Virus record (IMG/VR): IMGVR_UViG_3300047157_000111
Span: 4,207 to 68,206 of that record
Reading direction: 5' to 3' (one strand)
DNA: 64,000 nt
Source of the DNA: a virus
Of this stretch, positions 14,858-51,806 are shown one piece after another; the stretch's first letter is position 1, and every line of letters starts with the position of its first letter. The translations under genes were made by a program, and so were the position numbers. The notes under the pieces are model-generated. The model was not told the origin of the DNA. It saw only the letters and a list, made by a program, of their open reading frames with translations, and made no database searches.

Positions 14858-15267
14858 TCCTTATGATTTTGTGGTTTATACAGTGTAAGTGGCCCTAATC
14901 GTCTTTCTGTGATAAGCTTTTTAAATAACTTCCAACGTAATGGAAATGATTCGTTAGCTCTACCTTTAGTTTCAATTATAAAACCCTTACCTACAAAGTC
15001 TGGCGTATATTTTATGTTAAGTATTTTCTTGTTACCTCTGTTTTTATATTCTCCTTTACCATTACCGCATCTTTCGTATGCTTCAAAAGGAAAATCAAAA
15101 GCCTCTGATAACTCAAAAGTTTGACCTTCATACAAAGATGTTATCTTTGCTTTTCTTAAGGCCATATACATATAACGCTCTAGCCCAGAGGCGAAGTTGA
15201 TCCCATCGTATGAGATCTTCTTCGACTGAACTGGTCCTTTTTTTCTTTTATAAGATTTCTTCTTCAT
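14812..15267 (-). CDS. T7 endonuclease I-like Holliday junction resolvase
   Basis: FASGLE...YTPDF...IIETKG PD-(D/E)xK motif. Confidence 0.8.
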   Translation of the reverse strand: MKKKSYKRKKGPVQSKKISYDGINFASGLERYMYMALRKAKITSLYEGQTFELSEAFDFPFEAYERCGNGKGEYKNRGNKKILNIKYTPDFVGKGFIIETKGRANESFPLRWKLFKKLITERRLGPLTLYKPQNHKECDETVRLILERLKE

Positions 15268-19482: not shown

Positions 19483-20214
19483 TTAAAGGGTTTTAGTTAA
19501 AAAATATTGTTTAGGGTCAAAGCCCTCAGACTTATAAAACAACTCATAAGCCTGTACTGCTCTTTCTACTTTATCTTTACCTCGTTCGTAGAACTGAGGC
19601 GAGCAATCAAAGATACCTATTTGATGTGTGTTCTTATCTATTACAATGAATAGCATCTCGTAACCAAATAGTTTACTGTAAATATAAGCTTGACTGTCGT
19701 AATTGTACTTAGAAGCTGAATACTTAAACTTTGTGATGTCTGCTGTTGTCTTCAAATCAATAATCAGCTTTTCATCATGGTTTACAATATCAGCTTTACC
19801 TTTCCACATATGACCTTCAAGCTCTGTAATTCCAGGTCGTTCGTACTCTACATTACCTAATCTTATCAAGTCTCTACATACTTCGTTGCTTAGCATCTTT
19901 TCTGTCATTAACTCTATTTGATCAACCTCGTGTTGTAACAAACATATCTCACCGTCTGAAATCTCCTTATATGCTTTGGTGTTTCTAGTTGTAGCTTCTA
20001 CGATCTTGAAGTTTTTAAGTTTTTCAGGTTCTAGAATAGCCGTGTGGAAATATCCACCAACTAAAAACGCAGGTCTTGGCGCTAGACCTTTGCCTAAAGC
20101 TAAAGGGTTGGTTAATAGCGTAGATATATCAGAGTTACTTAGATACTTCTTACCAAAGTCTCCATAGTAATTACTGTCGTCTTCTAACGCTTTTAATACC
20201 TCTTTTTTGTTCAT
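19483..20214 (-). CDS. PD-(D/E)xK exonuclease (RecE/ExoVIII-like)
   Basis: LSNSDI, HTAILEP, KGKAD, IIDLKTT, YDSQAYIY. Confidence 0.8.
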   Translation of the reverse strand: MNKKEVLKALEDDSNYYGDFGKKYLSNSDISTLLTNPLALGKGLAPRPAFLVGGYFHTAILEPEKLKNFKIVEATTRNTKAYKEISDGEICLLQHEVDQIELMTEKMLSNEVCRDLIRLGNVEYERPGITELEGHMWKGKADIVNHDEKLIIDLKTTADITKFKYSASKYNYDSQAYIYSKLFGYEMLFIVIDKNTHQIGIFDCSPQFYERGKDKVERAVQAYELFYKSEGFDPKQYFLTKTL

Positions 20215-20215
20215 G

Positions 20216-20764
20216 TTACAGTGTTGTTAATTCTTGCTCTACTTCTTTAGATAGAGCATACTTAGCTTTTATTGCTGCTACCTTACCACCCGCTTTCACA
20301 TAATCCTTTGCTTTAGCAAATGCTGGATCTTTAGTTGATGTTAATGTAGGTTTTTTTGGCTCAAACTTCTTTTTACCATGATCATTAGTGGCATCACTGT
20401 CAGCTGTATCATCAATTAAAAACAAATTACCTAACGCGTATTTTTTTGCATAAGAAGATGCACTACCGAACTGCTGAGGTACGTTCATACCTTTTTGGTT
20501 CAAGTCTACACCAACGATAGCAGTTGCGTGTATAGCATTGTCGCCATCACTTACAGATGCGGTAGACTGCATCATAGGTATAGGGTCAACGCTAATGATT
20601 TGCTCATTGATTGTTACTGTTACTCCTAACTCTAATAGAAAGGGTTTTGTTGCTTCTAGGATGTCTTCGGCTGATCTGAAGTTGTATTTGCCAAAGGAAT
20701 TAAATCTACTTTTTTTCGATTTAAATTTTGTCTGGATCGTTGCCAGTTTTTCATTTATAGTCAT
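20216..20764 (-). CDS. erf: ERF-family ssDNA annealing protein
   Basis: NSFGKYNFRSAEDIL...GSASSYAKKYAL...DDTADSD. Confidence 0.88.
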   Translation of the reverse strand: MTINEKLATIQTKFKSKKSRFNSFGKYNFRSAEDILEATKPFLLELGVTVTINEQIISVDPIPMMQSTASVSDGDNAIHATAIVGVDLNQKGMNVPQQFGSASSYAKKYALGNLFLIDDTADSDATNDHGKKKFEPKKPTLTSTKDPAFAKAKDYVKAGGKVAAIKAKYALSKEVEQELTTL

Positions 20765-20826: not shown

Positions 20827-21585
20827 CTACAGGTAATCAAGCACTTGCGAGTGGTCTACAGACTCTATTAATTTCTCAACAGCTTGCTTTTTTAACTGCG
20901 AAACTCTTACGTAAGAGCTACTACCTTTTATGTTTAACATAGAGGCTATATCTTTTGCGGCGTGTTTTTCACAGTCTAAACCGTAGCTCAGTCTTAGTAT
21001 ATTATATTCCAAATCGTTTAAATGTTTCTTTAATAAACCAGTTAGGTATATGTTTAATATCTGCTGGTTGTATGGTTCTGACTTGTCAGGAATATCATAT
21101 ACTGAGTTATCATCATTGTTAGGCTTCTCATCTATACTTAAAAATATAGAATTAAAAAACATAGCAACCATTTTTTCATCTTTACCGAAGTTCTTACGCA
21201 TCTCGTTAAGCTTGTGCTCTGGTATACGTATATCACCTCTGTTTATATCTATAGATCTTCTTATTGCTCCTTTAATTCTTTTACTAAAAAATGATTTCAA
21301 TGTCTTCTCGTAGTCTTCAGATTTTTCTAGTGTTGGCCAATCTAATCTATCAACAGCTTTAGTTAGTCCTGCTGCTCCTGATTGTATTAAATCCATAATA
21401 CTCTGTACACCTGAAGCTTGTTGACTGGTTGAAAACTTTCTAGCTAGACTTTCTACTAAAGGCATAAACTTAGTTATAAGCTCTTCTCTAGTACAGTCTG
21501 CCCAGTCTTTATTCTCTAGTCTTATCAAAGCTTGCTTAAGATCTTCTTTGTATCTTATATAGTTCTGTATGTTATACTTTTTCAT
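20827..21585 (-). CDS. sigma-70-family RNA polymerase sigma factor
   Basis: Region 2 (LVESLARKF...DLIQSG..GLTKAVD...IKGAIRR, IRIPEH) and region 4 HTH (ILRLSYGL...RVSQLKKQA). Confidence 0.85.
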   Translation of the reverse strand: MKKYNIQNYIRYKEDLKQALIRLENKDWADCTREELITKFMPLVESLARKFSTSQQASGVQSIMDLIQSGAAGLTKAVDRLDWPTLEKSEDYEKTLKSFFSKRIKGAIRRSIDINRGDIRIPEHKLNEMRKNFGKDEKMVAMFFNSIFLSIDEKPNNDDNSVYDIPDKSEPYNQQILNIYLTGLLKKHLNDLEYNILRLSYGLDCEKHAAKDIASMLNIKGSSSYVRVSQLKKQAVEKLIESVDHSQVLDYL

Positions 21586-23138: not shown

Positions 23139-23245
23139 TAGTATCTTCGTTTACTTGTTCTATTGTAATGAGCATCTAATAATAAGTGTACTACTTCTTC
23201 GCTTATCATGTTGTCGTTATATAATTGGTATATTAACTTACTCAT
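23138..23245 (-). CDS. hypothetical protein (35 aa)
   Basis: MSKLIYQLYNDNMISEEVVHLLLDAHY...; coupled to both neighbours. Confidence 0.45.
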   Translation of the reverse strand: MSKLIYQLYNDNMISEEVVHLLLDAHYNRTSKRRY

Positions 23246-24086
23246 AATTACGTATTGCTTTGTAAAATGGATGTCTGTAACTACCAGCTGGTGTACGTTC
23301 GAAATATGTAAACGTAGCTCGCTTACCTATGTAGTCGCTAACGTTATCTAGTATATCAGCTAGCATTTTGTAGTTGTAACCTTTACCTGGAGGACAACCA
23401 AATTCTACGCCATCGTCATCAATCATTAAGAATTTACCTAATGTGCCTGTGCGTTTACCTTTACCAGGAACATAGCCTACTATAGTGGCTTCTGTGTCGT
23501 GAAAGTCTTTAAACTTTTGCAAGTTGTAAGAACGCTTGCATTCATATGGCTTATCTAGTCTTAGTATAGATCCTTCGTAACCCGCGTTTAAGTTTATTTG
23601 ATGCAACACTTTAGCGTGATCATTGTCTTTAACTTGAGTTGTGTGTGTATGTTTAACACAATAAGAATACATATCAGAACAAGCTAGTTGATCCATTCTG
23701 TAACTATAAGGCATGTTTAACACATTTTCTATGTAGTCATAACAATGAAATTGTACTAATTTAGATGCCTCAGTTCTGTCAGATGGCGTTGGTTTAGTTT
23801 TTCTGACTAATGATATGATCTTGTTGAAATCGTCTCTTAGATCATGATTATATAACTCACCGTCAAGTATAATATCAGGGTTCTGTGTGAAAAAGAAATG
23901 TAATGAATTAGTAATGTGAGCTATGTTAAGCCACGGTTTACCAGTACGTGAAAAAGCTTGTACTTCATTATTGTCGCCGAGTTTAATCACACATCTAACA
24001 CCATCTAGTTTAGGTTGCATATATACTTTCTCGGACCAGTCGACAGGTTTTTTGTCTACTTTGTATGCGAGCATTGGTTTTATCAT
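23238..24086 (-). CDS. lig: ATP-dependent DNA ligase
   Basis: PMLA, QPKLDGVRC, LDGELY, YEGSILR, KFK, RHP. Confidence 0.92.
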   Translation of the reverse strand: MIKPMLAYKVDKKPVDWSEKVYMQPKLDGVRCVIKLGDNNEVQAFSRTGKPWLNIAHITNSLHFFFTQNPDIILDGELYNHDLRDDFNKIISLVRKTKPTPSDRTEASKLVQFHCYDYIENVLNMPYSYRMDQLACSDMYSYCVKHTHTTQVKDNDHAKVLHQINLNAGYEGSILRLDKPYECKRSYNLQKFKDFHDTEATIVGYVPGKGKRTGTLGKFLMIDDDGVEFGCPPGKGYNYKMLADILDNVSDYIGKRATFTYFERTPAGSYRHPFYKAIRNYE

Positions 24087-30087: not shown

Positions 30088-31653
30088 ATGGAATTTAATA
30101 ACCCTAGCGAGCTTGTCAAGGATTTATCCTTCGGTGAGGAAGCTAAAAGTAAAGTAATTAATGGTGTAGATAAACTAGCTAAAGCAGTAAAGTCTACATT
30201 AGGAGCTTCAGGTAAGTGTGTCATTTATGAAGATGCTCGTGGAAGACCGGTGATAACAAAAGACGGTGTAACCGTTGCGGAAAGCGTAGTCTTAATGGAT
30301 CCGGTCGAAAACATAGGAGCAACACTTATCAAAGAAGCTGCTAAAAACACAGTGAAAGAAGCAGGTGACGGTACTACAACAGCTACCGTCCTTGCTGAAT
30401 CACTACTAAAAGAAGCATCGTCAGCAGAAGGCTCAGTAAGAGACATAAAGCTAGGCATTGCATCTTGTGCTAAAAAAGTAAACAAGTACTTAGACGATAT
30501 AACTATAGAGGTCAAAGGCGAAATGCTAAGAGACGTTGCAGCTATATCATGTAACAACGATAACGAACTAGGTGCCATCATATCTGATGCTTATGAAAAA
30601 GTAGGTAAATCAGGTGTGGTTTTGATGGAAGAGTCAGAAACAGAACAAACGTACGTTGAGATCGTAGATGGAGTACAGTTGGAATCTGGCTTAAAATCGC
30701 CACACCTTATTACAGATAGAGATAAACAACGTACAGTTCTTGAAAAACCGCTAGTATTAATAGTTGCATCGACAATACCTAACATACGTAAGATACAACC
30801 AATACTAGAACATGTTATAAAGACTAAGAGATCGTTACTTATAGTAGCTGAAGTTGAGACTCAAGTGTCATCTACGCTACTAATGAACAAAGTTAAGGGT
30901 AATATAAAGGTAAATTATATAGATCCACCAGGATTTGGTCCTACAAAGCAAAGTACGCTTGAAGATTTAGCATTTTTAACAGGTGCTACTATAATGGATG
31001 AGAATCTAGGTGATGATTTAGACCTTATAAAGCCTGATTGCTTAGGTGAAGTACAAAAAGCGGTCACAGATGATAAAACTACAGTGCTAACCACTATGGA
31101 TTTAGGCTTAGATTTAGAAGAAAGGATCAAAGATGTGCAAAAAAGCATAAAAAAAGAAAAAAACCAGTACATAAAACGAAGACTAGAGCAAAGATTAGCC
31201 ATGTTAAGTGGTTCAGTTGGCTTAGTGAGAGTTGGTGCTGACTCAAAGGTTGAGTTGAAAGAGAAAAAAGACAGAATAGAAGATGCTATTTACGCCGTTA
31301 AGGCCGCCTTGAAAGAAGGAATAGTCCCGGGTGGTGGTGTAGCGTTGTTTGATGCGGCAAAATTTGTTGAACCTAGCGGTTTAGGAGAAGAAATACTTCT
31401 AAAATCCATAGTTTCACCGTTTAACACGATATTAGACAATGCAGGCATCATAAATTCTGTTAAAAAAGACGAAGTATACGGTTATGGTATAGATGTAACC
31501 ACTGGTGAGTATATCAATATGATAGAAAAAGGTATAATTGATCCAGTTTTAGTTACTAAGTCAGCTCTTAAAAATGCAATATCAGTAGTTTCTACTATAA
31601 TATCTGCAGATTGTGTAATCTCTAATGTAAGAATAGAAAATGCAAGCAGTTAA
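30088..31653 (+). CDS. groEL: phage chaperonin GroEL
   Basis: [28 protein letters not shown]; no GGM tail. Confidence 0.95.
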
Positions 31654-37552: not shown

Positions 37553-40417
37553 ATGGCGCAAAAGTTTTTAAATGGAATAGTATCCACAGGTAACATTTTA
37601 CCAAGTTCTGACTCTACTTATGATTTAGGGCATGGAAACTACAGGTGGGCTAACTTAAATGTAGATGCTATTTCTACAACATCTACGTTTGTAGCGGGCG
37701 GAACTATAGCTTTAAATTCAAGTATATCAACATTAAATAAAGCGCAAACATCTTACATAAGTTTTGCTACCAGAAACACATCTGGAAGTGAAACTTTAAT
37801 GGATTTAAGCAACATTGGAACAGCAACTTTTGAAGGTAATATAACAGGTGTAACAGAAACTTTAACAGGTGCAACTTCATTAATGTTAACTCTAAATCCA
37901 ACCGCAAATAACTACGGTGGTATTTGGTTTAAATATGGTGGAACATCAAAAGGAATGTCTGTATACAACTCTGGTAGTATGGTATATGGAGGGGAATCTG
38001 GAGTTGGTACTATATTACAAACTAATGGGTCACACGCTTTAAATATTGATACATCTCAAAATGCAACTTTTGCAGGTGGTGTAACAGTTGATGGAACAGC
38101 AGTCTTCAAACATGGCGGTACTACTTTCAAAACAACTTTTGCGCACGGTAACGAAATAAACACAGAAACAGCAGCTGGCGCAGACGCCACTATGTATTTA
38201 AATTATAGAAGTGGAACTGTTAATATAGCTAATAGCGCTTTAAAAGTAAATAACGCTGGTGACTCAACTATCAAAGGACATTTAATACCTCACGCAGATG
38301 CTACCTATGATTTAGGTACTACGGATTCTAAAGATTTTAGAACTTTATATGTCAGAAATATTGATGTATATAATCAAAGGCTTTTTATTGAGACTAGTGG
38401 AACTTTACCAAGGTTTTTTGATCACCCTACAGTGGGAGATGGGATTCAGTTTAATCATTTAGGGACAGAAATATTACGACTTGGAAATGGTAGTAGTACG
38501 ACAGCAACTTTTGCAGGAACAATAACTACCGGTGATAATAGTAATGATAATTACATATCAGCAACATTTAGTGATTCAACATACACTAGGATGCACGGGT
38601 ATGGTTTGTATATGTCAAGAGACAATTCATATATAAGACCAACTACTGATACAGGTAAAACCTTATACATAGGTTCATCAGATAAAAGATGGGACAATGT
38701 AAATGTTCACGCTACAAACGCAACTTTTGCAGGTAATGTAACTATAGCCCATGCAACAAATCCATATATTTATATAAACGACACAAACGCAGGTGCAGGT
38801 ATATTTCAACAAGAGGGTAATGATACTAGGATAGGTTCGGATACAAATACTACGGTTAAGATAGTACAAAACAACCAAGATGCAATTACTATAAATACAT
38901 CTAAAAACGCAACTTTTGCAGGTAACTTAGGAACCGGTGGTTTAACCGCAACTGATGTAACCGGTTTAAGCATTAAATCACAATCAATAAGCTCTCAACA
39001 ATCAGCAATAGACATTATACAAAATGGGAGTGGTACTAATCCTATCATACGTATGGGTGAAAAATCTACTAATGGTGCTAGATTACATATGTTTGATTCA
39101 AATGTTGAAAAAATTGCTTTTTATACTGACGGTACAGATAATCATATTACCGCGGGAAAACTTGGTTTAGGAACTTCGTCTCCTCAAGACAAATTACACG
39201 TGTATGGTACTGTTAGAGGTGATTTAAAATTAGAAGGAAATTATACAGGTGGAACAACAGATGTAGGTAAATTTTCATACGCATACGCGCCTAGAGGCGG
39301 GGATAGTAATAACAAAAACATTGCCTACATAAGTGGGTATAATACAACTACTGATTCAACGTCTGGAGGTTACATACAAATAGCAACTAGACCAACAAAC
39401 GGGACAATGCAGGCTCGTATACGTATTGATCAAGATGGTGAAGTTGGTATCAACACAACAAACCCGACTGAAAGACTTGAAGTTGTTGGTAACATACTAG
39501 CTAAAGATTCTGGAGTTTTAGCGGGTGTTGGTGGTGCTAAAGATGGTTTTATATTCCACGATTTATATACTGGCTCTGGTGACTACTACGGTTACAAAGC
39601 TTATACAAATAACAGTAACACAAGATTAAGTGTAGTTACTAATGGTGACGAAAGATTAACAGTCTTGGCTGATGGTAAAGTTGGTGTAGGTATTGAAACA
39701 TTGCATCAAAAATTCTCAGTAAACGGTAATATTAACATAACTGGTGGTGATGGTAGTTTTTTAACGTTTAACAATGGTGACGCTAATATATCAATACATA
39801 ATAACAATGCTGATAGCGTTGTTGGTAGAGACTTATCATTTAAAACGTATAAAGCAGGTGTTGGTAATACCGAGAAAATGCGTATCAATAGAGACGGGAA
39901 TGTCGGTATTGGATTATCAAACCCTTCATCTAAATTACACGTTAGGACAAGCACTAACTTTAATTATGAATTTGAAGAAGTATCTAGTAAATTAAGATTT
40001 TCTGCTTTAAATGATGCTAGAGACGCTAATGTTCCACTTGAATTCGCCGCGTCGTCTTTTGGTTTTCTTACAGGAAATACAACTTTTGCAGGTAGTGTAA
40101 AAGTAAAAAACGCTTTAATAGATAACGCTTCTGTAACTTCTGCTACCACAACTACAACTGTTGCTAGTGTAAGTGGAACTACCTACGCAGCTGTTTTCTT
40201 TGATTATGTTATTTATAAAAGCAGTAATATTAGAGCGGGTACCGTAGTGGCTTGTAGCGATGGAACGACTGTATCTTTTACTGAGACATCTACAACAGAC
40301 TTAGGAGACACATCAGATGTAACATTAGCTGTAGATTTATCATCTTCTAATTTTAGATTAAGAGCAACGACAGCTTCAAGTACATGGAATATTAAAGCAT
40401 TAACAAGAGCAATATAA
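37553..40417 (+). CDS. modular tail fibre
   Basis: Repeated ATFAG and GNVGIG...P..KL.V.G modules, TYDLG repeats. Confidence 0.75.
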   Translation: MAQKFLNGIVSTGNILPSSDSTYDLGHGNYRWANLNVDAISTTSTFVAGGTIALNSSISTLNKAQTSYISFATRNTSGSETLMDLSNIGTATFEGNITGVTETLTGATSLMLTLNPTANNYGGIWFKYGGTSKGMSVYNSGSMVYGGESGVGTILQTNGSHALNIDTSQNATFAGGVTVDGTAVFKHGGTTFKTTFAHGNEINTETAAGADATMYLNYRSGTVNIANSALKVNNAGDSTIKGHLIPHADATYDLGTTDSKDFRTLYVRNIDVYNQRLFIETSGTLPRFFDHPTVGDGIQFNHLGTEILRLGNGSSTTATFAGTITTGDNSNDNYISATFSDSTYTRMHGYGLYMSRDNSYIRPTTDTGKTLYIGSSDKRWDNVNVHATNATFAGNVTIAHATNPYIYINDTNAGAGIFQQEGNDTRIGSDTNTTVKIVQNNQDAITINTSKNATFAGNLGTGGLTATDVTGLSIKSQSISSQQSAIDIIQNGSGTNPIIRMGEKSTNGARLHMFDSNVEKIAFYTDGTDNHITAGKLGLGTSSPQDKLHVYGTVRGDLKLEGNYTGGTTDVGKFSYAYAPRGGDSNNKNIAYISGYNTTTDSTSGGYIQIATRPTNGTMQARIRIDQDGEVGINTTNPTERLEVVGNILAKDSGVLAGVGGAKDGFIFHDLYTGSGDYYGYKAYTNNSNTRLSVVTNGDERLTVLADGKVGVGIETLHQKFSVNGNINITGGDGSFLTFNNGDANISIHNNNADSVVGRDLSFKTYKAGVGNTEKMRINRDGNVGIGLSNPSSKLHVRTSTNFNYEFEEVSSKLRFSALNDARDANVPLEFAASSFGFLTGNTTFAGSVKVKNALIDNASVTSATTTTTVASVSGTTYAAVFFDYVIYKSSNIRAGTVVACSDGTTVSFTETSTTDLGDTSDVTLAVDLSSSNFRLRATTASSTWNIKALTRAI

Positions 40418-41610
40418 TGGGAATATATAGAGGGCCAAACAACGTTACAAAAGATTTAGAATTTGGGTTTGATACTGGTCACGGTGTTTCAAACAACACT
40501 ACTGCAACTAGATTCAATAAGGGTGAACCAACAACAAATTTGCAATCATCAAACCAAACAAGTGGGCAGGTATCAGGTATGTCAGGTATTACGATAACAT
40601 ATGTTGGTGAAGAAGATGGTTATTCAAAATATTCAATGAATGGTACTTTTACTGGTGGTACATATCCTTATATTATGTATTTAGCCAGTACATCTTTTAC
40701 TAGCGGTACATCATATTCTACACAGTGCAAGCTAAAAACAAATGTTCCTGATAAGTTTAATTATATAGGAGGAGGGATTAATTATGTAAACGTAGCTATG
40801 AATAATGCTGGTGCAAATAGCAGTGTACTTCAAGATGATGGTTACTATTTAATTAAAAGAGAAGGTTTTGACTACCAATCAAATACTACTCAACCAGGTT
40901 ATATTCATAGTAACCCTATTAATAATACAACATTTAGTTCATCAACAGATTTTGTTTATATAAAAGATTTTCAAATAGAGCAAAATAATCACTGTACACC
41001 ATACACGCCAACTTCTAGATCAAACACTGCTAGTTTAATAGATTTAAAAAGATCAACAGATATAGACGTAGGTGGTATATCGTTTAGTGCTACTGCTCAA
41101 GCAGAGTTTGATGGAACTGATGATAAAATTACTTTAAGCCATGCTAATTCACCTGTAACTAACGTATCGTATGAAATGGTTGTTAAATTTGACACACTAC
41201 CCGCAACTAATTCATATAAATCAATTTGGCAAAAACAAACAAACTGGAACAATGCTGGTGGTGTAATGATGCAATTTATATATAACGCTTTTAGATGGTC
41301 ATATGGTAACAGCTGGGGTGGTGCGGTGAGTTATCCTCAATCAAACTTTACCACTGGAAAATATTACCATATAGTTGGTACTGTAGATAATATAAATGGA
41401 GCTAACGCTAAACTTTACGTGAACGGTGTACAAGTTGGCTCGACAGGTACAGGTTCAAAACTTAACACAACAGCTGTTTTAAACATAGGGGAAGGGAACG
41501 GTGGTAGACTTGATGGATCACTAGGTGTATTTAAAATGTACAGTAATACCCTTACTGCAGAAGATGTAAAACAAAATTTTAATACGTACAAAAATAGATT
41601 TAATATATAA
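40417..41610 (+). CDS. tail protein with carbohydrate-binding-like and LamG/ConA domains (paralog 1)
   Basis: FDGTDD...YYHIVGT...LYVNG...YKNRFNI. Confidence 0.7.
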   Translation: MGIYRGPNNVTKDLEFGFDTGHGVSNNTTATRFNKGEPTTNLQSSNQTSGQVSGMSGITITYVGEEDGYSKYSMNGTFTGGTYPYIMYLASTSFTSGTSYSTQCKLKTNVPDKFNYIGGGINYVNVAMNNAGANSSVLQDDGYYLIKREGFDYQSNTTQPGYIHSNPINNTTFSSSTDFVYIKDFQIEQNNHCTPYTPTSRSNTASLIDLKRSTDIDVGGISFSATAQAEFDGTDDKITLSHANSPVTNVSYEMVVKFDTLPATNSYKSIWQKQTNWNNAGGVMMQFIYNAFRWSYGNSWGGAVSYPQSNFTTGKYYHIVGTVDNINGANAKLYVNGVQVGSTGTGSKLNTTAVLNIGEGNGGRLDGSLGVFKMYSNTLTAEDVKQNFNTYKNRFNI

Positions 41611-41613
41611 ATT

Positions 41614-41946
41614 ATGAGTAGATTTGAAAACAGAAGGTGGTTAGTATTGCCAATAGAAAAAATAGACGACATAAACTTTAGTCAGGTTCATCAATCTAAT
41701 AAAGAATCATTAAGAAAGTCAATTGACGGTAAAAAAACATTTGTAAAATATGAAGTTTTAGATGTTAAAGAAGATTTTGAAACTAAATATATAGATGCAG
41801 ATACTAATGAAGAAAAGTCTTATACGACTAAAAAAGGCGTGTATGGCAGACCTGATGTGTATAGCACAGATTATACGGAGTACAATCACGCTGATATTTT
41901 AGCTTTATTAGCTACAGATGAGTGGACTATAAAAATAGAAGAATAA
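41614..41946 (+). CDS. hypothetical tail-associated protein
   Basis: INFSQV...LRKSIDGKKTFVKY...EW. Confidence 0.55.
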   Translation: MSRFENRRWLVLPIEKIDDINFSQVHQSNKESLRKSIDGKKTFVKYEVLDVKEDFETKYIDADTNEEKSYTTKKGVYGRPDVYSTDYTEYNHADILALLATDEWTIKIEE

Positions 41947-41947
41947 A

Positions 41948-43171
41948 ATGGGAGTAAATGTAGCAACAAGTATTGCTAATAGCGATTTATTTTTTGGCTA
42001 TGATACTGGTCATGATGTGGCAAACCCTAGCAATATAACTAGGTTTTACCCAGGTGAGCCAACGGTTAATTTAATGACTTCTCATTTTGAAAGCTTAGGT
42101 CTTGATGGTTCAGGACAAAGTAGTGTAGGCACGAGAACCACTATAGCCACTAACCACGTTAGAATAGTAGACAGCACTTCTAACACTAGACAACACGTGT
42201 ATGTATCTGGCTTAACAGCTGGTACAACTTACACATTATCAAATCAGTTTAGAAAAATATCCGGAACTCCTACATGGAGGTATCAAATACAAGCTTATAA
42301 CAACGGTTCATACGTTGCTACTATAAAATTTACAAACACTGCTGAAGTTGGTTTATTAGATATAGATGGATGGCAAACTGCTAAATGGACTTTTACTTTG
42401 CCCGCTAATTCAAACAAAGTTCTTATATTTTTTCAAGATGGGGCTGATTATGCTACATACGATCATTCTTTTGAAGTAAAAAACCCTCAGTTAGAAGCTA
42501 AAGGTCATGCTAGTAATTATGTTGATGGAACTAGATCGGATACGGCTGGCTTAATAGATTTAAAAAGAACAAAAACATTAGACTTAGGTGATGTTGGTTT
42601 TACTTCAGGTCAAGAATTAGATTTTGACGGTAGTGACGATAAAATAGAACTAGGTAATCATTTAAATACTATAGGTAGTGAAGCTACTTTTGATATGGTT
42701 TTTAAAAGTTACTCTACAAACGATTCTTTTAAAGTTATGATTGGTTGGGGTCATGGCACAAGTAATTATTCTCACATTTCAATAGGTAACTTAACAAGTG
42801 GTTATAACGATGAATCGCTACATGTTGTTCTAAACGCTAGTTTTGAGATGTATGTTAGAGAAGGTCACACAACGTATAAAGACAACGAATATCATCATGT
42901 ATCAGTCACGCTTGGTGCTAACAAATATTCAATATGGATAGATGGTGTTGAAAAAACATTTACCTTTGCACAAGGATCACAAACATCACATTTTCCTGAA
43001 ATTGTTGGTTATAACAGTAACATAACAGCACAAGTAGGCCAAAGACCTTACGGTGGTGGATCAGGTAATTTTGAAGGAGAAATACCGGTTATGAAGGTTT
43101 ATAAAAGAATACTAACTGACGAAGAGATAAAACAAAATTACAAAGCATATAAAAACAGATTTGGAATATGA
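41948..43171 (+). CDS. tail protein with carbohydrate-binding-like and LamG/ConA domains (paralog 2)
   Basis: FDGSDD...YHHVSVT...WIDG...YKNRFGI. Confidence 0.7.
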   Translation: MGVNVATSIANSDLFFGYDTGHDVANPSNITRFYPGEPTVNLMTSHFESLGLDGSGQSSVGTRTTIATNHVRIVDSTSNTRQHVYVSGLTAGTTYTLSNQFRKISGTPTWRYQIQAYNNGSYVATIKFTNTAEVGLLDIDGWQTAKWTFTLPANSNKVLIFFQDGADYATYDHSFEVKNPQLEAKGHASNYVDGTRSDTAGLIDLKRTKTLDLGDVGFTSGQELDFDGSDDKIELGNHLNTIGSEATFDMVFKSYSTNDSFKVMIGWGHGTSNYSHISIGNLTSGYNDESLHVVLNASFEMYVREGHTTYKDNEYHHVSVTLGANKYSIWIDGVEKTFTFAQGSQTSHFPEIVGYNSNITAQVGQRPYGGGSGNFEGEIPVMKVYKRILTDEEIKQNYKAYKNRFGI

Positions 43172-44346
43172 AGATAGGACCTAATTTAGTGCAAGGAAAT
43201 TTACTGTTCGGTTACGACACTGGTTATGGTGTGGGTAACATAGGCGCACCTACAAGACATTTTAAAGGCAAACCAACAACTAATTTAACAACAAGTACGT
43301 TAACATCTGTTTTTAGCAGTTGGGCTGGTTTAGTAGGAACGTCAACCGCTTACACTGGTGGTTATTTAGGTAACTCAGGTGTTCATGTAAAAATCTCATC
43401 TGGTGGTGGTGTTAATTGGTGGAGTTCTCCGTCTTTAGCTGGTTTATCAGGTAATACGCAATACACAGTAAGTGCCACTATGAAATTTACTGGTAGGGCT
43501 TTTAACGGTGACGATGCAAACATGTTATACATTAGAGAGTATAATAGCAGTAATACTCAACTAAGAGAATATGGTTATTTCAGCCCAAATCGAATGATTG
43601 ATTTAGGTGACGGGTGGTATAGAGTTTGGGGGACAGTAACTACTCAAGCTACAACTAACCGAATATTACTTCATGGTTATTCTTATACTACAAACACAGA
43701 TATAAAACTTCAGGATCTACAGTTTGAACTAGGTGACACTCCTAGTCCATTCGCAGGATATAACAACTCTAGATCTGACACAGGTCAGTTAATAGATTTA
43801 GCTGGTCAAAGTGACATAAGTTTAAGTAACATGTCTTTTGATAATACAAACACGAATACATACATAGGTAACCCTACTTTTGATGGCTCAGGTGATTTTA
43901 TTGATATAACTACAAATTTTGGAACACTAGCTCAATATTCTTTTGAATATGTTGAAAACCCTTCACAAACACATAAGATGCCAATATCAAGTAGGTTAAA
44001 TACTAATTTTTATAAATATGGTGCTTATAGCTGGAGGTATAAACATGGTGGAACATTAGGTGAGTATTACCATACAGCTGGAGCTACATCTGGTTGGCAT
44101 CATTGGGTTATATCATACAACGGCGCTACATTAAAAATATATCAAGATAATGTACTTATAGGAAACACGGTACCTCATTTAGGTTCTGCGGATTGGAGCG
44201 GAGGATTAAAAATAGGCTGGTGGTCATCTGGAGCTGATTATGATTTTAATGGTGATATACCAGTTATGAAGTTTTACGATAGAGGTTTAACAGCTAGTGA
44301 AGTAGCTAGTAATTTTAACGCGTACAAACAAAGATTTAATATATAA
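43168..44346 (+). CDS. tail protein with carbohydrate-binding-like and LamG/ConA domains (paralog 3)
   Basis: FDGSGD...WHHWVISY...YKQRFNI. Confidence 0.7.
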   Translation: MKIGPNLVQGNLLFGYDTGYGVGNIGAPTRHFKGKPTTNLTTSTLTSVFSSWAGLVGTSTAYTGGYLGNSGVHVKISSGGGVNWWSSPSLAGLSGNTQYTVSATMKFTGRAFNGDDANMLYIREYNSSNTQLREYGYFSPNRMIDLGDGWYRVWGTVTTQATTNRILLHGYSYTTNTDIKLQDLQFELGDTPSPFAGYNNSRSDTGQLIDLAGQSDISLSNMSFDNTNTNTYIGNPTFDGSGDFIDITTNFGTLAQYSFEYVENPSQTHKMPISSRLNTNFYKYGAYSWRYKHGGTLGEYYHTAGATSGWHHWVISYNGATLKIYQDNVLIGNTVPHLGSADWSGGLKIGWWSSGADYDFNGDIPVMKFYDRGLTASEVASNFNAYKQRFNI

Positions 44347-44367
44347 CCCGGAAAATGAAAGGTAAAT

Positions 44368-47300
44368 ATGGCAAATGAATTTAAAGTAAAAAAAGGTCTA
44401 ATAGTAGACGGCTCAAATACGGTTCTTGATATACAAGGAACGCAAGGGCAATTATTCTCTGTAACGGATAGTTTGACAGGAGACTTATTCTCTGTATCTG
44501 ACGTGTCAGGTATACCTATATTAAATGTTAACTCTAGTGGAGATGTAGATATTGATGGAGCTTTAGGTATAGGTGCTACGGCATCTCAATTTCACGCTGA
44601 CGCTGATGATCTTGTAGTTGGCGCAGGTAGTGGTAATACTGGTATAACAATACATAGTGGAACTAGTGGTTATGGTTCAATATTTTTTGCAGATGGTACA
44701 GCAAATGATGCCACAGAAAAAAGAGGTCAAATAAGATATTTACAAGGTACTGAAAGAATGGACTTTCATACTGATAATGTTGCAACCGCAGCATTATCGT
44801 TAGCAGCTAATGGTAACGCAACTTTCGCAGGTAATGTTACAATTACTGGTGATAGTGCTAGTCCACATACTGATAGAGCTCTTACTGTAAATAGAGGTCA
44901 AGATGGTAGTATAGCTTTACAAGTTCTAAACTCAGGTGAGGTTGTAACAAATGCAAATTACTTTTATGCAACTGGACCCGGAGTATCCATGTATGTACAG
45001 AACACTGCTGTTTTTAGAGGTTCTATTGTGAATGATGTTTCTAATGCACCAGTTACAATTGGTGATGATTTATCAGTTGCAGGAAATATTACCGCGCCTG
45101 GTTTGGTTTATAATGCCACTAATAAATACTTATCTATATCGCATTGGTCATCACCTCCTACACCCGCGGCAATACTACATTTGTCAGATAACTCTAACGA
45201 TTTAGATGTTCCGCAGATAAGAATAGAAGGTAGGGAAAACCCTGGTGACACAGTCTTAGATATAGCGGTTAAAGATGCAGATGTTAGATTTAATTTAGTT
45301 GAAGGTAGCACTGATGCTGCTTCTGGTTATGGTAGAATGCATTTTAAAACAAACGCTAGTGCTAATTCATCTCATCCAACAAGAGGTGGTTTTCTTTTTC
45401 AATCAGGTCCTAGTTCAAGTCTTATTAATGTTTTAGATATAACAAACGAAGGTAATGCAACTTTTGCAGGTAATGTTGCAGTGCAACAAGCTGGAGATGT
45501 ATATTTAACATTAGAATCTACTGATGCAAGTACCGCGGAGGAAGTAGCTATTAAATACAGTAATCAATCAACAGGTAGTAACTATTGGTGGGCAGGTTTA
45601 AATCAATCTGCTAATTACTCATTAGCCTATGGAACGTCTTATTCTGGAGCTAATGTTAAAATGGAAATTTCAACCGCGGGTGACGCAACTTTTGCAGGAG
45701 AAGTTAACACTGGTGGTAACATTGTAATGACAAAGTCTTCAGGTAATAACCAGCTATATATAAACAGTTCGGGAGGTGGAGCGCCTGTTATGTACCTACA
45801 AGATCCAAACCGTAAATGGGGTCAATTTGTTTCGAACGGTCATTTATATTTTAAAGATGAAACTGCAAACGTAACTTCACTTAAAATAGATGGTGTTACT
45901 TCAAATGCAACTTTTGCAGGTAATATAACTTTAAATACAGGTACAGCTAAAAAACTTTCCATATTAGCATCTACGCACGATACAAATACAGCTCAAACAG
46001 CTACATTAGAACTAGGTTACACTCACTCTGGTGGAGCTGCTGCTGGTAATATAGTTTTAACCGAAGCAGCTAACAACGCTTTTGATGCTGATATGACTTT
46101 TGGATTACCTTATAACAATGGAAGTGGTGGTAGTACAACAAGAACAGCGTTAACTTTAGACGGTGGTACTTTAGCAGCAACTTTTCTAGGTAATGTAACC
46201 GCAGTTAATGTAATACCTACTACAGCCTTAAGAGTTGGTGCTGCTGATAAATGGAAAATAAGAGGTAATAACTCTAACAATAATTTAGCTTTTGAATATG
46301 CTGCTTCTGAATCTCTAGCTGATACTAATATAAAATTAGAATTAACTTCAACAGCCGCAACTGTTAAAAACAGCTTATCAATACAATCAGATGATGATAA
46401 TAGATTTTTAGTTAGATCAAATGATTATACTATATCTAGAATTATTTCAAGAGGACTTACTGGCACAAACTTAGACAAAGGTTTGTTCTCATTAATGACT
46501 TCAGACGGTACTACTAACAATGTTGAAGCAGTTCGTATAGATTCCGCTGGTAACTCTTGGTTTAACGGTGGGCAAGTTGGTATTGGAGTCGGTACTCCAA
46601 CTGAATTGCTGCATATTAAAAACCCAAGTAATTCCTGGAATCAATACGCTAGAATTAGAATAGGCACAGAAACTAGTGATAACTATGCTTCTGAAATAGG
46701 TTTTCATAGAGGAACGAGCGACGACACGGATAGAGGATTTTTTATTGATGGTGGTGGTAGTGGTACTCAGCATTTAAAAGTTTTATATACCGGAAATGTC
46801 GGAATAGGGACTGTTTCTCCTGGGGCTAAGTTAGAGGTAGCAGGTGGAGCGGATTCTATTGCTAGGGTATTAGGAACAACTACAGCTGCAAGATTAGATT
46901 TACAGACTAATTCATTTCATAAATTTATACAAACAATAGAGTCTGATGGTCGTTTTAGACTATATAACCAAACAACTTCAAAAGAACAACTAACAGTTAC
47001 AAATGTTGGTAGCGTCGGAGTTGGAGATGCAGCCCCAACACTTATATCAGCAAACACATATAGTCTATCTGTTAATTCAGCAAGAAATGATTTATCGGGT
47101 GGGTTAATAACTAAAGCCAATGGATCTGTAAAACACCAGCAATATTGGGATTCAAGTGGATACAGTTTCAACCTTTCAGCTAACGCAGGAGATTTTAAAT
47201 GGAATGTTAACGGTAACAGTAGAATGGTTGTTGATAAAGATGGTGGTCTTGATATACAAGGAACAGCTGGTCAACTATTTTCAGTCACAAATAGTTTATC

Positions 47301-48255
47301 TGGTGATTTATTCTCAGTATCAGATGTATCAGGTATACCAATATTTAATATAAACTCTAGCGGTTTATCAAACTTTGATGGTAACGTTCTTGTAGGTAAA
47401 ACAGCAGTAAATAACGCACTAGTAGGTGTTCAGCTAATGACTGATGGAAGTATAAATCCAACTGTTAGCGGTGACACTGTAGCTAGGTTTAATAGACTAA
47501 GTAGTGACGGTGAAGTTATAAGAATACAAAAAGATACAGCTACTGTTGGAGCCATAGGGTGTTACAACGGTGTACCTTGGATAGGTTACCAAGGTGGAGC
47601 TGGTGGTGGAATTATGTTCAACGGGGCTAGCATTGAACCAACGTTGTTAGGATCATCAAGATCTAGTAACACTAATGATATAGGTTCGGTAAATTACAAG
47701 TGGAGGTATGGTTATTTTGGCACTGGTTTGAATACGCATGATCTTGTCGCTACAAACTCAACGGTATTAAGTGGTCCAGGTAGTGGAACATCAAATGTTT
47801 TAGCAGTAAACCATGGAGCAGGATCTCATACAGGGATAGGGATAAAAATAACTTCAGCAAATAGCGGTCATGCTCTTGATTTAACTGGAACTGTGGGTAG
47901 TGGTTACGCGAGAATAACAACAGCTTATAATAATCTTCCTGATTTTACAATATCAGGTACAATCACTGCTGGTGAAGATGTAATAGCTTACTCAGATATA
48001 AAGCTAAAAGAAAATATAAAAACATTAGATGGTTCTAAAGTTTACGACATGCGTGGTGTTAGTTTTACAAGAAAAGACACTGAAAAAGAAGGTAGCGGTG
48101 TAATAGCTCAAGAGATGCAGAAAGTAGCACCTGAATTAGTTAATGAAGTAGATGGCACATTAGGTGTGTCTTATGGTAACATAACAGGTTATCTAATTGA
48201 GGCTATAAAAGATTTAAAAGCAGAAGTAGAACAACTTAAAAAACAAATTAAATAA
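44368..48255 (+). CDS. tail fibre/spike with C-terminal peptidase S74 intramolecular chaperone
   Basis: AYSDIKLKENI...GVIAQE...LIEAIKDL; ATFAG and GNVGIGT modules. Confidence 0.85.
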   Translation: MANEFKVKKGLIVDGSNTVLDIQGTQGQLFSVTDSLTGDLFSVSDVSGIPILNVNSSGDVDIDGALGIGATASQFHADADDLVVGAGSGNTGITIHSGTSGYGSIFFADGTANDATEKRGQIRYLQGTERMDFHTDNVATAALSLAANGNATFAGNVTITGDSASPHTDRALTVNRGQDGSIALQVLNSGEVVTNANYFYATGPGVSMYVQNTAVFRGSIVNDVSNAPVTIGDDLSVAGNITAPGLVYNATNKYLSISHWSSPPTPAAILHLSDNSNDLDVPQIRIEGRENPGDTVLDIAVKDADVRFNLVEGSTDAASGYGRMHFKTNASANSSHPTRGGFLFQSGPSSSLINVLDITNEGNATFAGNVAVQQAGDVYLTLESTDASTAEEVAIKYSNQSTGSNYWWAGLNQSANYSLAYGTSYSGANVKMEISTAGDATFAGEVNTGGNIVMTKSSGNNQLYINSSGGGAPVMYLQDPNRKWGQFVSNGHLYFKDETANVTSLKIDGVTSNATFAGNITLNTGTAKKLSILASTHDTNTAQTATLELGYTHSGGAAAGNIVLTEAANNAFDADMTFGLPYNNGSGGSTTRTALTLDGGTLAATFLGNVTAVNVIPTTALRVGAADKWKIRGNNSNNNLAFEYAASESLADTNIKLELTSTAATVKNSLSIQSDDDNRFLVRSNDYTISRIISRGLTGTNLDKGLFSLMTSDGTTNNVEAVRIDSAGNSWFNGGQVGIGVGTPTELLHIKNPSNSWNQYARIRIGTETSDNYASEIGFHRGTSDDTDRGFFIDGGGSGTQHLKVLYTGNVGIGTVSPGAKLEVAGGADSIARVLGTTTAARLDLQTNSFHKFIQTIESDGRFRLYNQTTSKEQLTVTNVGSVGVGDAAPTLISANTYSLSVNSARNDLSGGLITKANGSVKHQQYWDSSGYSFNLSANAGDFKWNVNGNSRMVVDKDGGLDIQGTAGQLFSVTNSLSGDLFSVSDVSGIPIFNINSSGLSNFDGNVLVGKTAVNNALVGVQLMTDGSINPTVSGDTVARFNRLSSDGEVIRIQKDTATVGAIGCYNGVPWIGYQGGAGGGIMFNGASIEPTLLGSSRSSNTNDIGSVNYKWRYGYFGTGLNTHDLVATNSTVLSGPGSGTSNVLAVNHGAGSHTGIGIKITSANSGHALDLTGTVGSGYARITTAYNNLPDFTISGTITAGEDVIAYSDIKLKENIKTLDGSKVYDMRGVSFTRKDTEKEGSGVIAQEMQKVAPELVNEVDGTLGVSYGNITGYLIEAIKDLKAEVEQLKKQIK

Positions 48256-48569
48256 TGGCAATAACTTATAGTACTAACATACTACACTTAAAAGGTGCTC
48301 CAAGCTTTCAAGACTTAACCAATGTAATAAAAGAAGTTGAGTTTGAGGTTGTAGCTGTAGACGGTGATTATACACACAATAGTATGGGTCACATTAGTGT
48401 AGAATTAAACGAAGATAGTTTTACGGTTTTTGAAGATGTAACTGAAGAGCAAGTTATAGGTTGGGTGGAATCTCACCCTGTTCATCAAGGACACAAAAAC
48501 CACTTAGAAAAATTTATAGATAACATGAAAGTACCTATGGATGTAGGTATGGAAAAACCTTGGTTATAA
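48255..48569 (+). CDS. tail-fibre accessory protein
   Basis: FEDVTEEQVIGWV...PW motif; follows the S74 fibre. Confidence 0.5.
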   Translation: MAITYSTNILHLKGAPSFQDLTNVIKEVEFEVVAVDGDYTHNSMGHISVELNEDSFTVFEDVTEEQVIGWVESHPVHQGHKNHLEKFIDNMKVPMDVGMEKPWL

Positions 48570-51017: not shown

Positions 51018-51213
51018 TATCGGTAAAGATTATAAAAATGAAGCTATGCATTATGCCGTGGGCCAAGAGGTCTACGGCGGGCATACTATTTGTCATATAA
51101 CAGAAGAAGATGACAAGTTTAGTATATTTATTAAAAAAGCTGACGAGGTTTTACCTTGGAAAGACTTTAATAAAAATATGGCTGTAGCTATAGAGTATAA
51201 TCTAGAGTATTAA
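50995..51213 (+). CDS. conserved hypothetical protein
   Basis: MKLIRKISIGKDYKNEAMHYAVGQ...; likely start is the ATG at 50995. Confidence 0.6.
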   Translation: MKLIRKISIGKDYKNEAMHYAVGQEVYGGHTICHITEEDDKFSIFIKKADEVLPWKDFNKNMAVAIEYNLEY

Positions 51214-51806
51214 TGAAGAGCATATTTGATTTTGTTGTTGAGCCAGTAGGCGACAGATACAACAACACTAAAAATATAGATGGCGTTGATTTAATACTAA
51301 ACACGCAAATATTCACACATCAAAACGTAAATAGGCTAGCAATAGTTAAAAGCTTACCTATAACAGGTGACACTAATATTAGAATAGGTGATCAAGTCAT
51401 TGTTCATCACAATGTTTTTAGAAGGTATCATGACGTTAGAGGAGTGGAAAAGAATGGCAAGAGTTATATAGATGATGATAATTATCTATGTTCTTTTGAC
51501 CAGATATTTTTATATAAAAACAAAAACGAGTGGAAAGCACCTAAGGGTTATTCATTTGTTAAACCTATTGAATCTAATAATATTTTTAATCTAAACAAAG
51601 AATTGCCTAGTATAGGTGTTGTAAAGTATCTCGATGAAGACTTTGATTCACAAATACAACAAGGTGATTTAGTTGGTTTTACTCCTGGTAGTGAATACGA
51701 GTTTATAGTAGATGACGAAAGATTATATAGAGTTAGATCTCAGTCATTAACTATTAGATATGAATATCAAGGAGACGAAAAAGAATATAATCCAAGCTGG
51801 GCATAA
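51213..51806 (+). CDS. tandem double GroES-like co-chaperonin
   Basis: Two units: FVVEP...IRIGDQVIVH and FVKP...GVVKY...GDLVGF...EFIVDDERLYRV. Confidence 0.55.
   Translation: MKSIFDFVVEPVGDRYNNTKNIDGVDLILNTQIFTHQNVNRLAIVKSLPITGDTNIRIGDQVIVHHNVFRRYHDVRGVEKNGKSYIDDDNYLCSFDQIFLYKNKNEWKAPKGYSFVKPIESNNIFNLNKELPSIGVVKYLDEDFDSQIQQGDLVGFTPGSEYEFIVDDERLYRVRSQSLTIRYEYQGDEKEYNPSWA

Follow-up and report, generated by a model that had tools for sequence, protein, structure and literature searches.

We analyzed a 64,000-nucleotide stretch of DNA (hereafter, the window) that comprises bases 4207-68206 of the 68,206-base IMG/VR virus record IMGVR_UViG_3300047157_000111, which is rated 100% complete; the first 4.2 kb of the record lie outside the window. 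The subject of the analysis is a 14-nucleotide (nt) word, GCAACTTTTGCAGG, that recurs in two tail-fiber genes of the window, referred to as fiber genes A and B, and there encodes the peptide ATFAG or a variant of it at the borders between protein modules. The large terminase encoded in the window was closest to those of podoviruses of Flavobacteriia, with 44-61% amino acid (aa) identity, and the 87 GenBank records matching it comprised Flavobacterium (68), Cellulophaga (15), Tenacibaculum (2), Maribacter (1), and one uncultured record. Judging from these terminase relatives, the host is probably a marine member of the Flavobacteriia.

Both genes were recognized as encoding structural proteins of the tail. 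The product of gene A, P0001, matched PHROG tail-fiber families 9942 (1.6e-13) and 18345 (1.2e-7); no Pfam family matched it, and it contained no Peptidase_S74 domain. The product of gene B, P0002, matched ten PHROG tail-fiber or baseplate families (best 9.6e-24). Its sole Pfam match, PF13884, lies at the C-terminus (Table 1), which places fiber B among the tail fibers that carry an S74 chaperone in that position.

Searching the window for GCAACTTTTGCAGG with up to two mismatches returned 11 matches, seven of them exact and every one on the plus strand, whereas the same search on 100 shuffled sequences yielded a mean of 0.46 copies and a maximum of 3. All 11 copies, numbered m1 to m11, lie in frame 0 of the two fiber open reading frames (ORFs), where they read ATFAG, ATFEG, TTFAG, or ATFLG. 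A six-frame peptide search of the window found no other ATFAG-type site using different codons, so the list of copies is not biased by having been compiled at the DNA level. The copies divide the fibers into modules of 63-390 aa. Comparison of module with module gave weak likeness at most (22-30% aa identity, with E values of 1e-4 or worse in a tiny database), including 26% identity over the full length between A1 and A4 and 22% between B2 and B4. A reading made earlier from the sequence alone (hereafter, the sequence-only reading) had proposed 11 in-frame copies, seven exact, that separate dissimilar modules of about 60-390 aa, and both statements hold.

The copies do not look like recent tandem duplicates, in which DNA similarity would run through the repeat units. 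Although some pairs share 20-21 uninterrupted bases (e.g., m4/m5 and m8/m10), the DNA flanking each copy is unrelated from copy to copy, and only a core of 12-14 nt is fixed. They are also strictly direct repeats: record G000 contains seven exact copies in the forward and none in the reverse orientation. Most of the modules bounded by the motif sit in the N-terminal or middle part of the fiber shaft, and the label "receptor module" given to them in the sequence-only reading is an unproven, candidate designation. Receptor binding usually resides in the C-terminal parts of fibers; the C-terminal parts A6 (after m6) and B5 (after m11) are exchanged as blocks at those junctions.

We then considered the codons of the word. 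The motif alanines are encoded by GCA in 19 of 19 cases (10/10 for the first, 9/9 for the second), threonine by ACT in 11 of 11, and phenylalanine by TTT in 10 of 11. Outside the motif, the share of GCA among alanine codons is 24% for the window and 34% for both fiber genes, GCT being the common codon (61%); ACT accounts for 40-42% of threonine and TTT for 81-83% of phenylalanine codons. Tables of neighbor context do not account for the fixity, as GCA is used in 35% of cases before threonine and in 33% after phenylalanine. The joint probability of the motif codons ranges from 2e-14 (fiber background) to 4e-17 (window background) and is 3e-13 with the most favorable neighbor-context frequencies. 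Conserved residues flanking the motif use mixed codons (N, AAT/AAC; G, GGT/GGA; V, GTA/GTT). Codon identity therefore exceeds what local usage predicts, and the claim of the sequence-only reading that the synonymous positions are nearly fixed by a constraint at the nucleotide level is borne out against both window and fiber codon usage; the same fixity is present in many other phages.

The same reading had also pointed to a mini-palindrome (GCAA/TTGC) in the core of the word. It does exist, but its folding energies (-2.1 and -3.4 kcal/mol; z = -0.28 and -1.55 against shuffles) are no better than those of shuffled sequences, and it is missing from the variant word GCCACATTTGCTGG and is not conserved. 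We rejected the idea of a functional hairpin on these grounds.

To locate the edges of homology around the copies, breakpoints were taken from the ends of BLAST high-scoring segment pairs (HSPs). Eight segments of the window (A1, A3, A4, the end of A5 with m6, the start of B1, B2, B3, and the C-terminal part of B5) have counterparts with 76-99% DNA identity in contigs of other viruses. This identity sets in or stops no more than about 12 nt from a motif copy, and past that edge it falls to the random level (Table 1). Edges of this kind, sought in the fibers of related phages as the sequence-only reading had suggested, were found at the copies in L264, L265, L274, L276, L277, and G005, and the homologies with L268 and L272 likewise end at m6. 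In a hand count of 21 distinct HSPs, obtained after merging duplicate loci and covering zones 37800-40110 and 44800-46200, 16 of 41 usable ends fell within 12 nt of a copy, although such margins make up only about 11% of the zones; four further ends were at the GNVGIG site described below. The arrangement of the shared modules differs between phages. L276 carries the end of B4, an unrelated module, B3, and then, farther on, A4, and in L265 a single ORF contains the end of A5 at a distance of 283 nt from the start of B1. As read from these alignments, module order is permuted, and modules of fibers A and B are mixed within one gene. Breakpoints at the copies, permuted order, and A/B mixing together support the earlier proposal that the copies act as in-frame crossover points.

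The same tendency was evident across the loci retrieved from IMG/VR. In an all-versus-all blastn comparison, 105 of 416 internal HSP ends fell within 10 nt of a copy (null mean 13.1, maximum 24), and extending the distance from 10 to 30 nt gained no further ends. Relative to the first base of the word, HSP starts clustered between -10 and +6 and HSP ends between +8 and +19. In a larger, de-duplicated set, 67 of 1,145 ends were no more than 6 nt away from an ATFAG site, where 11.5 would be expected, an approximately 6-fold enrichment, and identity beyond these breakpoints was 0.31, which is the random level. Counted per site, ATFAG was a breakpoint in 65 cases and was spanned in 14 (239 sites in all), whereas arbitrary SxxxT sites in the same ORFs were breakpoints in 158 cases and spanned in 473 (3,094 sites; Fisher p = 3e-23). 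Breakpoints are thus far from random relative to the motif. A comparison of breakpoint-to-spanned ratios by similarity to the word (50:6 for exact sites, 22:2 for one mismatch, 12:4 for two, and 15:15 for three or more) looks favorable but was not used, because it is confounded by the closer kinship of loci carrying the variant word.

Table 1. Coordinates of the fiber genes, motif copies, shared modules, second-motif sites, and candidate recombination genes in the window
Feature	Position	Strand	Description
Tail-fiber gene A	37553..40417	+	P0001, 954 aa; modules A0-A6 split by m1-m6
Tail-fiber gene B	44368..48255	+	P0002, 1295 aa; modules B0-B5 split by m7-m11
Peptidase_S74 intramolecular chaperone domain	47992..48141	+	Fiber B C-terminus, aa 1209-1258; PF13884, E 1.1e-9, 38.9 bits vs cut-off 22
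m1	37823..37836	+	GCAACTTTTGAAGG (ATFEG), in frame
m2	38063..38076	+	Exact 14-mer, in frame
m3	38504..38517	+	Exact 14-mer, in frame
m4	38720..38733	+	Exact 14-mer, in frame
m5	38909..38922	+	Exact 14-mer, in frame
m6	40079..40092	+	ACAACTTTTGCAGG (TTFAG); junction preceding C-terminal module A6
m7	44818..44831	+	GCAACTTTCGCAGG, in frame
m8	45457..45470	+	Exact 14-mer, in frame
m9	45685..45698	+	Exact 14-mer, in frame
m10	45907..45920	+	Exact 14-mer, in frame
m11	46177..46190	+	GCAACTTTTCTAGG (ATFLG); junction preceding 692-aa C-terminal part B5
Shared module A1	37835-38076		Partner L264, 87%; end of m1 to end of m2
Shared module A3	38504-38739		Partner G005, 98.7%; begins with the first base of m3, stops 6 nt beyond m4; flanks unrelated on both sides
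Shared module A4	38735-38909		Partner L276, 76%; m4 to m5
Shared module A5, end	39896-40100		Partner L265, 95%; GNVGIG site to m6
Shared module B1, start	44807-45092		Partner L265, 96.9%; begins 11 nt upstream of m7
Shared module B2	45456-45701		Partner L277, 89.8%; m8 to m9
Shared module B3	45642-45921		Partner L276, 94.3%; ends at m10
Shared module B4, end	46057-46196		Partner L276, 97.9%; ends at m11
Shared part B5	46173-48260		Partners L274/L275, 92.7% over 2109 nt; begins 4 nt upstream of m11
GEVGIN	39437..39454	+	HSPs of five relatives start at 39467-39470, inside the extended motif
GKVGVG	39674..39691	+	GxVG[IV]G class
GNVGIG junction	39896..39913	+	HSPs of L265, L268/L269, L272 start at 39896-39899; L261 HSP ends at 39913
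GQVGIG	46570..46587	+	GxVG[IV]G class
GNVGIG	46792..46809	+	GxVG[IV]G class
GSVGVG junction	47008..47025	+	HSPs of L288, L301, L286, L259 start at 47006-47014
Erf-like single-strand annealing protein	20216..20764	-	phrog_155, 2.1e-36; candidate machinery
Exonuclease VIII-like, adjoining the Erf gene	19483..20214	-	phrog_412, 2.4e-32; candidate machinery

To see how far the word extends beyond the window, we scanned IMG/VR with two patterns. Fibers of marine viruses commonly contain the peptide NATFAGNV. Both scans are samples, so that their counts are not totals, and redundancy between loci was lowered by clustering, although some remains. The exact word was found in at least 127 stretches, and 101 of 151 unique sites among the matches listed were in frame as ATFAG in long open frames. 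A frequent context among these matches was (L/I)D.SQN-ATFAG-.V, and several contigs carried 3-5 copies on the same strand. Because a scan for the exact word is biased by design, we added a codon-blind scan with AAYGCNACNTTYGCNGGNAAYGT, which encodes NATFAGNV. It returned at least 123 loci, in which the exact 14-mer occupied 49 of 114 unique sites among the matches listed, the remainder being written in many codon sets.

The fixity of the codons recurred in these loci. Among the 159 ATFAG sites of 76 long ORFs, which came from the 80 loci with a length of 2 kb or more, 81 were exact, against 12.4 expected from the codon usage of the same ORFs; restricting the count to sites that had not triggered the scan left 46 of 77 exact against 6.4 expected. 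Relatives of both fibers were also reached via peptides that have nothing to do with the motif, and in these the word was exact at 46 of 47 unique ATFAG sites. The probability of codon identity for ATFA was 0.388 against an expectation of 0.036, whereas control peptides from the same genes stayed at expectation (VGIG, n = 299, 0.026 vs 0.022; NVGI, n = 226, 0.037 vs 0.034; GIGT, n = 263, 0.025 vs 0.021). In cellular genomes, the same peptide pattern occurred in 83 stretches from many phyla, with one copy each and diverse codons; the exact word was not among the variants occurring there at least three times, with one case, L377, among the matches listed.

The word is shown by these comparisons to be spread over phages of unrelated lineages. 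A complete 115-kb phage, G006, carries five exact copies, and its terminase has no better match to that of the window than E 1.5e-4, with 25% identity across about 100 aa. Sites encoding ATFAG, sought with GCNACNTTYGCNGG in three GenBank records (the best terminase match, an uncultured podovirus; an Elemovirus, also a terminase relative; and the marine virus matched by the motif-rich part of fiber B), were found in none of the three.

Outside the fiber context, 22 unique sites among the matches listed lay opposite an open frame on the other strand (e.g., L058, L061-L064, L067, L071, L079, and L103). These are probably another conserved phage gene that carries the word by chance. A tRNA scan of six loci with the 14-mer outside the fiber frame found none.

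Some ORFs use other fixed words. The second variant, GCCACATTTGCTGG, was found in L191 (five copies plus one with TTC), L142, L151, L172, L196, and L204, and a further variant, GCCACTTTTGCAGG, accounted for all three copies in L171. The main word and the second variant differ at all three variable synonymous positions. None of the 14 loci with copies of the second variant also has the main word, and the 12 DNA-homologous locus pairs that involve such loci all join one second-variant locus with another. Within this group, L175 corresponds to L151 without a block of 643 nt, the end of which coincides exactly with the motif's 5' edge. Identical 12-nt ATFA strings were found in 101 of 154 pairs within ORFs compared with 1,662 of 4,406 pairs between ORFs, a difference that none of 5,000 permutations reached. 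What is maintained, therefore, is sameness among copies rather than one particular sequence. The existence of alternative fixed variants, homogeneous within genes, argues against a sequence-specific function in RNA, translation, or binding.

We also investigated natural populations. The fiber stretch was present, at half or more of the sampled words, in 18 public runs, and the 20 run entries containing the stretch or a part of it belong to 13 studies, which dealt with seawater, marine, or viral metagenomes. Contigs from four seawater or viral metagenome runs were placed on the stretch. In runs not flagged as a possible source of the record, contigs spanned copies with 0-1 differences (X16, 38152-38918 and 45654-46417; X9, 37807-38298), which indicates that the assembled module order is real. 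Other contigs matched the window up to a copy and then diverged: 17 of the 24 loose ends among the matches listed, beyond which there are 232 more, were no farther than 13 nt from a copy. Those listed represent all copies but m10 and include one end at 37836 (m1). The bin 38536-38919, which covers A3 and A4, had 3-10 times the depth of its neighbors (95.6 vs 32 and 28 in X9; 96 vs 12 and 8.5 in X19), suggesting that A3/A4 occur in a larger number of genotypes than do the other parts of the fiber. Contig joints running from copy to copy (e.g., 44838 to 45460 and 45698 to 45904) were not counted as deletion variants, because the shorter side of most of them matches over just 18-35 letters, a placement that the motif and its semi-conserved flank could bring about by themselves.

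Considering these results, we propose, with a probability of roughly 60%, that the ATFAG word marks in-frame junctions at which fiber modules are exchanged, and that the short shared identity drives crossover and keeps the synonymous sites fixed. ATFAG, usually in the form ..L(D/N)xSxN-ATFAG-N(V/I)T.., serves as a conserved junction peptide between modules of about 60-150 aa in marine phage fibers, and is encoded in this gene pool by a single fixed word whose identity extends to 20-21 bases between some copies. The presence of the same word at all junctions, in both fibers and in many phages, would permit homology-assisted crossover at any copy. Two co-infecting phages could recombine in this way, as could two copies of the word in the same genome, with 14-21 nt of identity used for annealing or strand invasion. 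Each crossover could produce an in-frame swap, deletion, duplication, or reordering, including replacement of the C-terminal parts after m6 and m11. Repeated crossing-over and gene conversion, together with the survival of recombinant fibers in the arms race with the host, would then hold the synonymous sites identical (concerted evolution), and lineages that do not exchange with the pool would have drifted to other fixed variants. Nucleotide identity would thus be both the substrate of recombination and the cause of the fixity.

Several observations weigh against this proposal. The exact word occupies only 43% of the codon-blind NATFAGNV sites among the matches listed, variants are mixed in some ORFs (e.g., L180), and the variant groups are also kin groups, so that their homogeneity partly reflects shared descent. 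In aligned HSPs, the four synonymous sites of the motif differed in 39 of 224 comparisons (17.4%), much as other synonymous third positions did (1,438 of 7,711, 18.6%; p = 0.73), although in the same HSPs they were far more alike than the third position of the adjacent glycine (24/56) or those of VGIG (116/212). BLAST HSP ends necessarily run through any conserved word, and for homologous recombination to be efficient, a tract of 14 to 21 nt is short. Finally, a second junction motif, GxVG[IV][GN] (extended form G.VGI.T..P...L.V), behaves in the same way in these fibers without fixed codons. Its GxVG[IV]G sites were breakpoints in 61 cases and spanned in 13, which is indistinguishable from ATFAG (Fisher p = 1.0), and GxVG[IV][GN] sites accounted for 81 HSP ends against 19.9 expected, with random identity beyond the breakpoints. 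A conserved junction peptide alone can therefore mark breakpoints with no need for a fixed DNA word, and the causal role of nucleotide identity in the 14-mer is something that we infer. The sequence-only reading had noted reuse of the rare GTCGG at some GNVGIG junctions; this stands for the window itself, where three of six GxVG[IV]G sites have it and GTC makes up 6.7% of valine codons (P = 0.005), but it does not carry over to the wider pool, in which VGIG shows no codon fixity.

One alternative is that the junction acts at the protein level only. Recombination would then be illegitimate or guided by patchy similarity, selection would keep the joins that fall at domain boundaries, and codon fixity would have a separate cause such as translation, co-translational folding, or a feature of the mRNA. 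The equal breakpoint ratios of GxVGIG and ATFAG, the former without codon fixity, speak for this explanation, and one partner of a junction can be without the motif, as in L264 at m1 and in L151 at its indel. However, it leaves the codon identity of ATFA (an order of magnitude above expectation) unexplained, and no single effect on RNA or translation fits variants that are specific to groups and homogeneous per gene; nor is the hairpin of the core more stable than shuffles. In addition, identical direct repeats in an essential gene would invite deletions, so that selection on the protein alone should diversify the codons, the opposite of what is observed. We regard this alternative as unlikely, yet a serious competitor.

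The exchange model does not specify the enzymes, but candidates are present. An Erf-like single-strand annealing protein and an adjoining exonuclease VIII-like protein are encoded in the window (Table 1) and may supply the annealing activity. Erf matches were found in three of the five records searched (G001, G004, and G009), and none was found in G007, which is only 59% complete. Erf was also not found in G006, complete and with its five exact copies, which counts as a further point against the exchange model and leaves the idea of Erf as the required enzyme unsupported; Erf may contribute without being required. Beside the Erf and exonuclease genes, the minus-strand replication block also encodes a Holliday-junction resolvase (14812-15267), a sigma-factor-like protein (20827-21585), and an ATP-dependent DNA ligase (23238-24086). 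A PHROG scan of 47 ORFs of the window, ten of which had no match, detected no integrase, invertase, HNH or homing endonuclease, or reverse transcriptase, which agrees, within those matches, with the earlier statement that no site-specific recombinase was recognizable.

This result also bears on the possibility that the word is the target of a sequence-specific nuclease or a site-specific recombinase that stimulates exchange, with the variants as co-evolved targets. A sharply conserved core of 12-14 nt next to a variable glycine third position would suit such a target, as would group-specific variants. Against it stand the lack of a candidate enzyme among the PHROG matches of those ORFs (the first 4.2 kb of the record being outside the window), the uniform direct orientation of 11 of 11 copies, and the occurrence of the word in phages of unrelated lineages; moreover, a binding site would rarely tolerate a change at all three variable synonymous positions, as between the main word and the second variant. 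We consider this explanation improbable. Least probable of all is that the pattern is one of shared descent or artifact, the copies being young duplicates of one repeat unit or the mosaics chimeric metagenome assemblies: the modules may all derive from a single repeated fold, at a very great distance (A1/A4, B2/B4), and the comparison sequences are all metagenome assemblies, but unrelated flanks and module proteins no more than 22-30% identical show that the copies are not young, shared tracts of 14-21 nt are below the usual assembly k-mers, the shared modules come from different records and are 76-99% rather than 100% identical, and the arrangement was re-assembled with 0-1 differences in runs not flagged as a source.

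Other features of the fiber region are recorded here. The N-terminal domain of fiber B (aa 20-72, 44425-44583) recurs at aa 961-1013 (47248-47406) with 74% aa identity, and many relatives match both copies at the DNA level. This suggests, from sequence, that fiber B is a fusion of a long fiber with a complete shorter fiber possessing its own N-terminal anchor and S74 chaperone. Between the two fibers lie three genes of about 395-407 aa (40417-41610, 41948-43171, and 43168-44346), two of which match phrog_8510. Their DNA homology in relatives is patchy. In metagenome contigs, position 40425 is linked directly to 41013, and 41052 to 43133, while 43162 comes ahead of 41610; these fiber-associated genes thus appear to vary as cassettes too. 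Elsewhere in the window are a GroEL-like chaperonin (30088-31653; phrog_5725, 1.5e-132), a GroES-like co-chaperonin (51213-51806; phrog_13932, 5.3e-20), and a giant ORF of 2450 aa (2462-9814) with only one weak match, to a family of unassigned function (phrog_32588, residues 70-515).

External searches provided little further information on the fibers. Sequence searches of the PDB found no match for either fiber, and single-sequence structure prediction for aa 300-470 of fiber A had a mean predicted local distance difference test score (pLDDT) of 40.6, which is unusable. In the Protein Atlas, the motif-rich part of fiber B matched unnamed viral clusters only, with no Pfam family common to the matches. 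The GenBank phage collection held no near DNA match to the fiber region. At the protein level, P0001 matched only cyanophage and pelagiphage fibers in that collection, at 25-29% identity and confined to its GxVGIG region, and the motif-rich part of fiber B matched one uncultured marine virus.

The closest known parallel is found in T-even phages. In the passages of Trojet et al. (2011; PMC3157838) that cite Tetart et al. (1996, 1998), distal fiber and adhesin genes are described as recombining between conserved motifs, namely the "His boxes" of gp37 and the glycine-rich motifs of gp38. As presented there, short motifs repeated within a fiber or adhesin gene separate hypervariable segments, and exchanges draw on a pool of interchangeable segments common to phages. 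Both features have their likeness here, and breakpoints of homology between different phages, a further mark of this kind of exchange, are found here in or beside the motifs. There is no sequence relationship to the T-even proteins in Pfam or the PDB, so the likeness is one of mechanism rather than family membership, and on our side it is drawn from sequence comparison. The present case also differs in having a single, codon-locked word of 14 nt, in up to 9-11 copies, in two fiber genes and unrelated lineages and with group variants, as well as in order permutation and exchange between two fibers.

Other systems resemble it in part. Duplessis and Moineau, in 2001, reportedly described collagen-like repeat DNA flanking the variable host-specificity region of antireceptor genes in Streptococcus thermophilus phages, and are said to have proposed it as a recombination hot spot for changes of host range. 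Both systems place in-frame repeats beside variable fiber segments, but theirs are long, low-complexity GXY repeats, whereas here a word of five residues and 14 nt lies between unrelated modules. The modular theory of phage evolution is commonly attributed to Botstein in 1980, and Clark and colleagues, in 2001, are said to have dealt with short boundary or linker sequences between genes of lambdoid phages. Mobile promoter stem-loop cassettes of T4-type phages are described in PMC2839356. Such borders, as far as those descriptions go, are like the present word in being short sequences shared at module borders and proposed to guide homologous exchange between diverged phages; they are intergenic and either non-coding or regulatory, whereas the present word lies inside a gene, is read in frame, and at the same time encodes a conserved structural peptide.

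Shufflons (Rci/sfx of IncI plasmids) and invertible tail-fiber segments (Gin, Cin, and Min of Mu, P1, and p15B) depend on inverted repeats and on a site-specific recombinase of their own. They share with the present case short repeats that separate adhesin segments and combinatorial C-termini. Unlike them, the copies here are all direct, and no recombinase was detected in the ORFs scanned with PHROG, some of which had no match. The features of a diversity-generating retroelement are likewise absent: no reverse transcriptase match was obtained, and the repeats are words of 14 nt rather than a template/variable pair of about 100 nt. A literature search, which mostly did not cover subscription journals, found no phage paper on the peptide ATFAG among the matches listed and none on the 14-mer or such a fiber motif. 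The case adds to fiber recombination at conserved motifs an example in which one codon-locked 14-nt word occurs in many copies per gene, in two fibers and in unrelated phages, with group variants.

A broader interpretation is more tentative, and we hold it with considerable doubt. The 14-mer might be a self-maintaining "linker code," in which junctions with the same word recombine with one another and marine phages of unrelated lineages share one combinatorial library of fiber modules. Variants such as GCCACATTTGCTGG would then be compatibility groups, comparable to mating types, and the synonymous sites would be held by second-order selection for recombinability, not by protein or RNA function.

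Tail fibers set the host range of phages, and how they come to diversify so fast is a question at the center of both phage ecology and phage engineering. The idea that modular exchange is guided by short shared sequences is an old one, but clean sequence evidence for it is scarce. The word described here offers measurable properties, namely locked synonymous sites, group variants, and breakpoints at base-pair resolution in uncultured marine phages, and so makes the hypothesis testable. Practically, it may be used to parse and annotate the modular fibers of uncultured phages of the Flavobacteriia type and of other marine phages, and as a set of natural splice points for chimeric fibers in laboratory phage-host systems. 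If the "linker code" interpretation were true, variants of the word would decide which phages can trade fiber modules.

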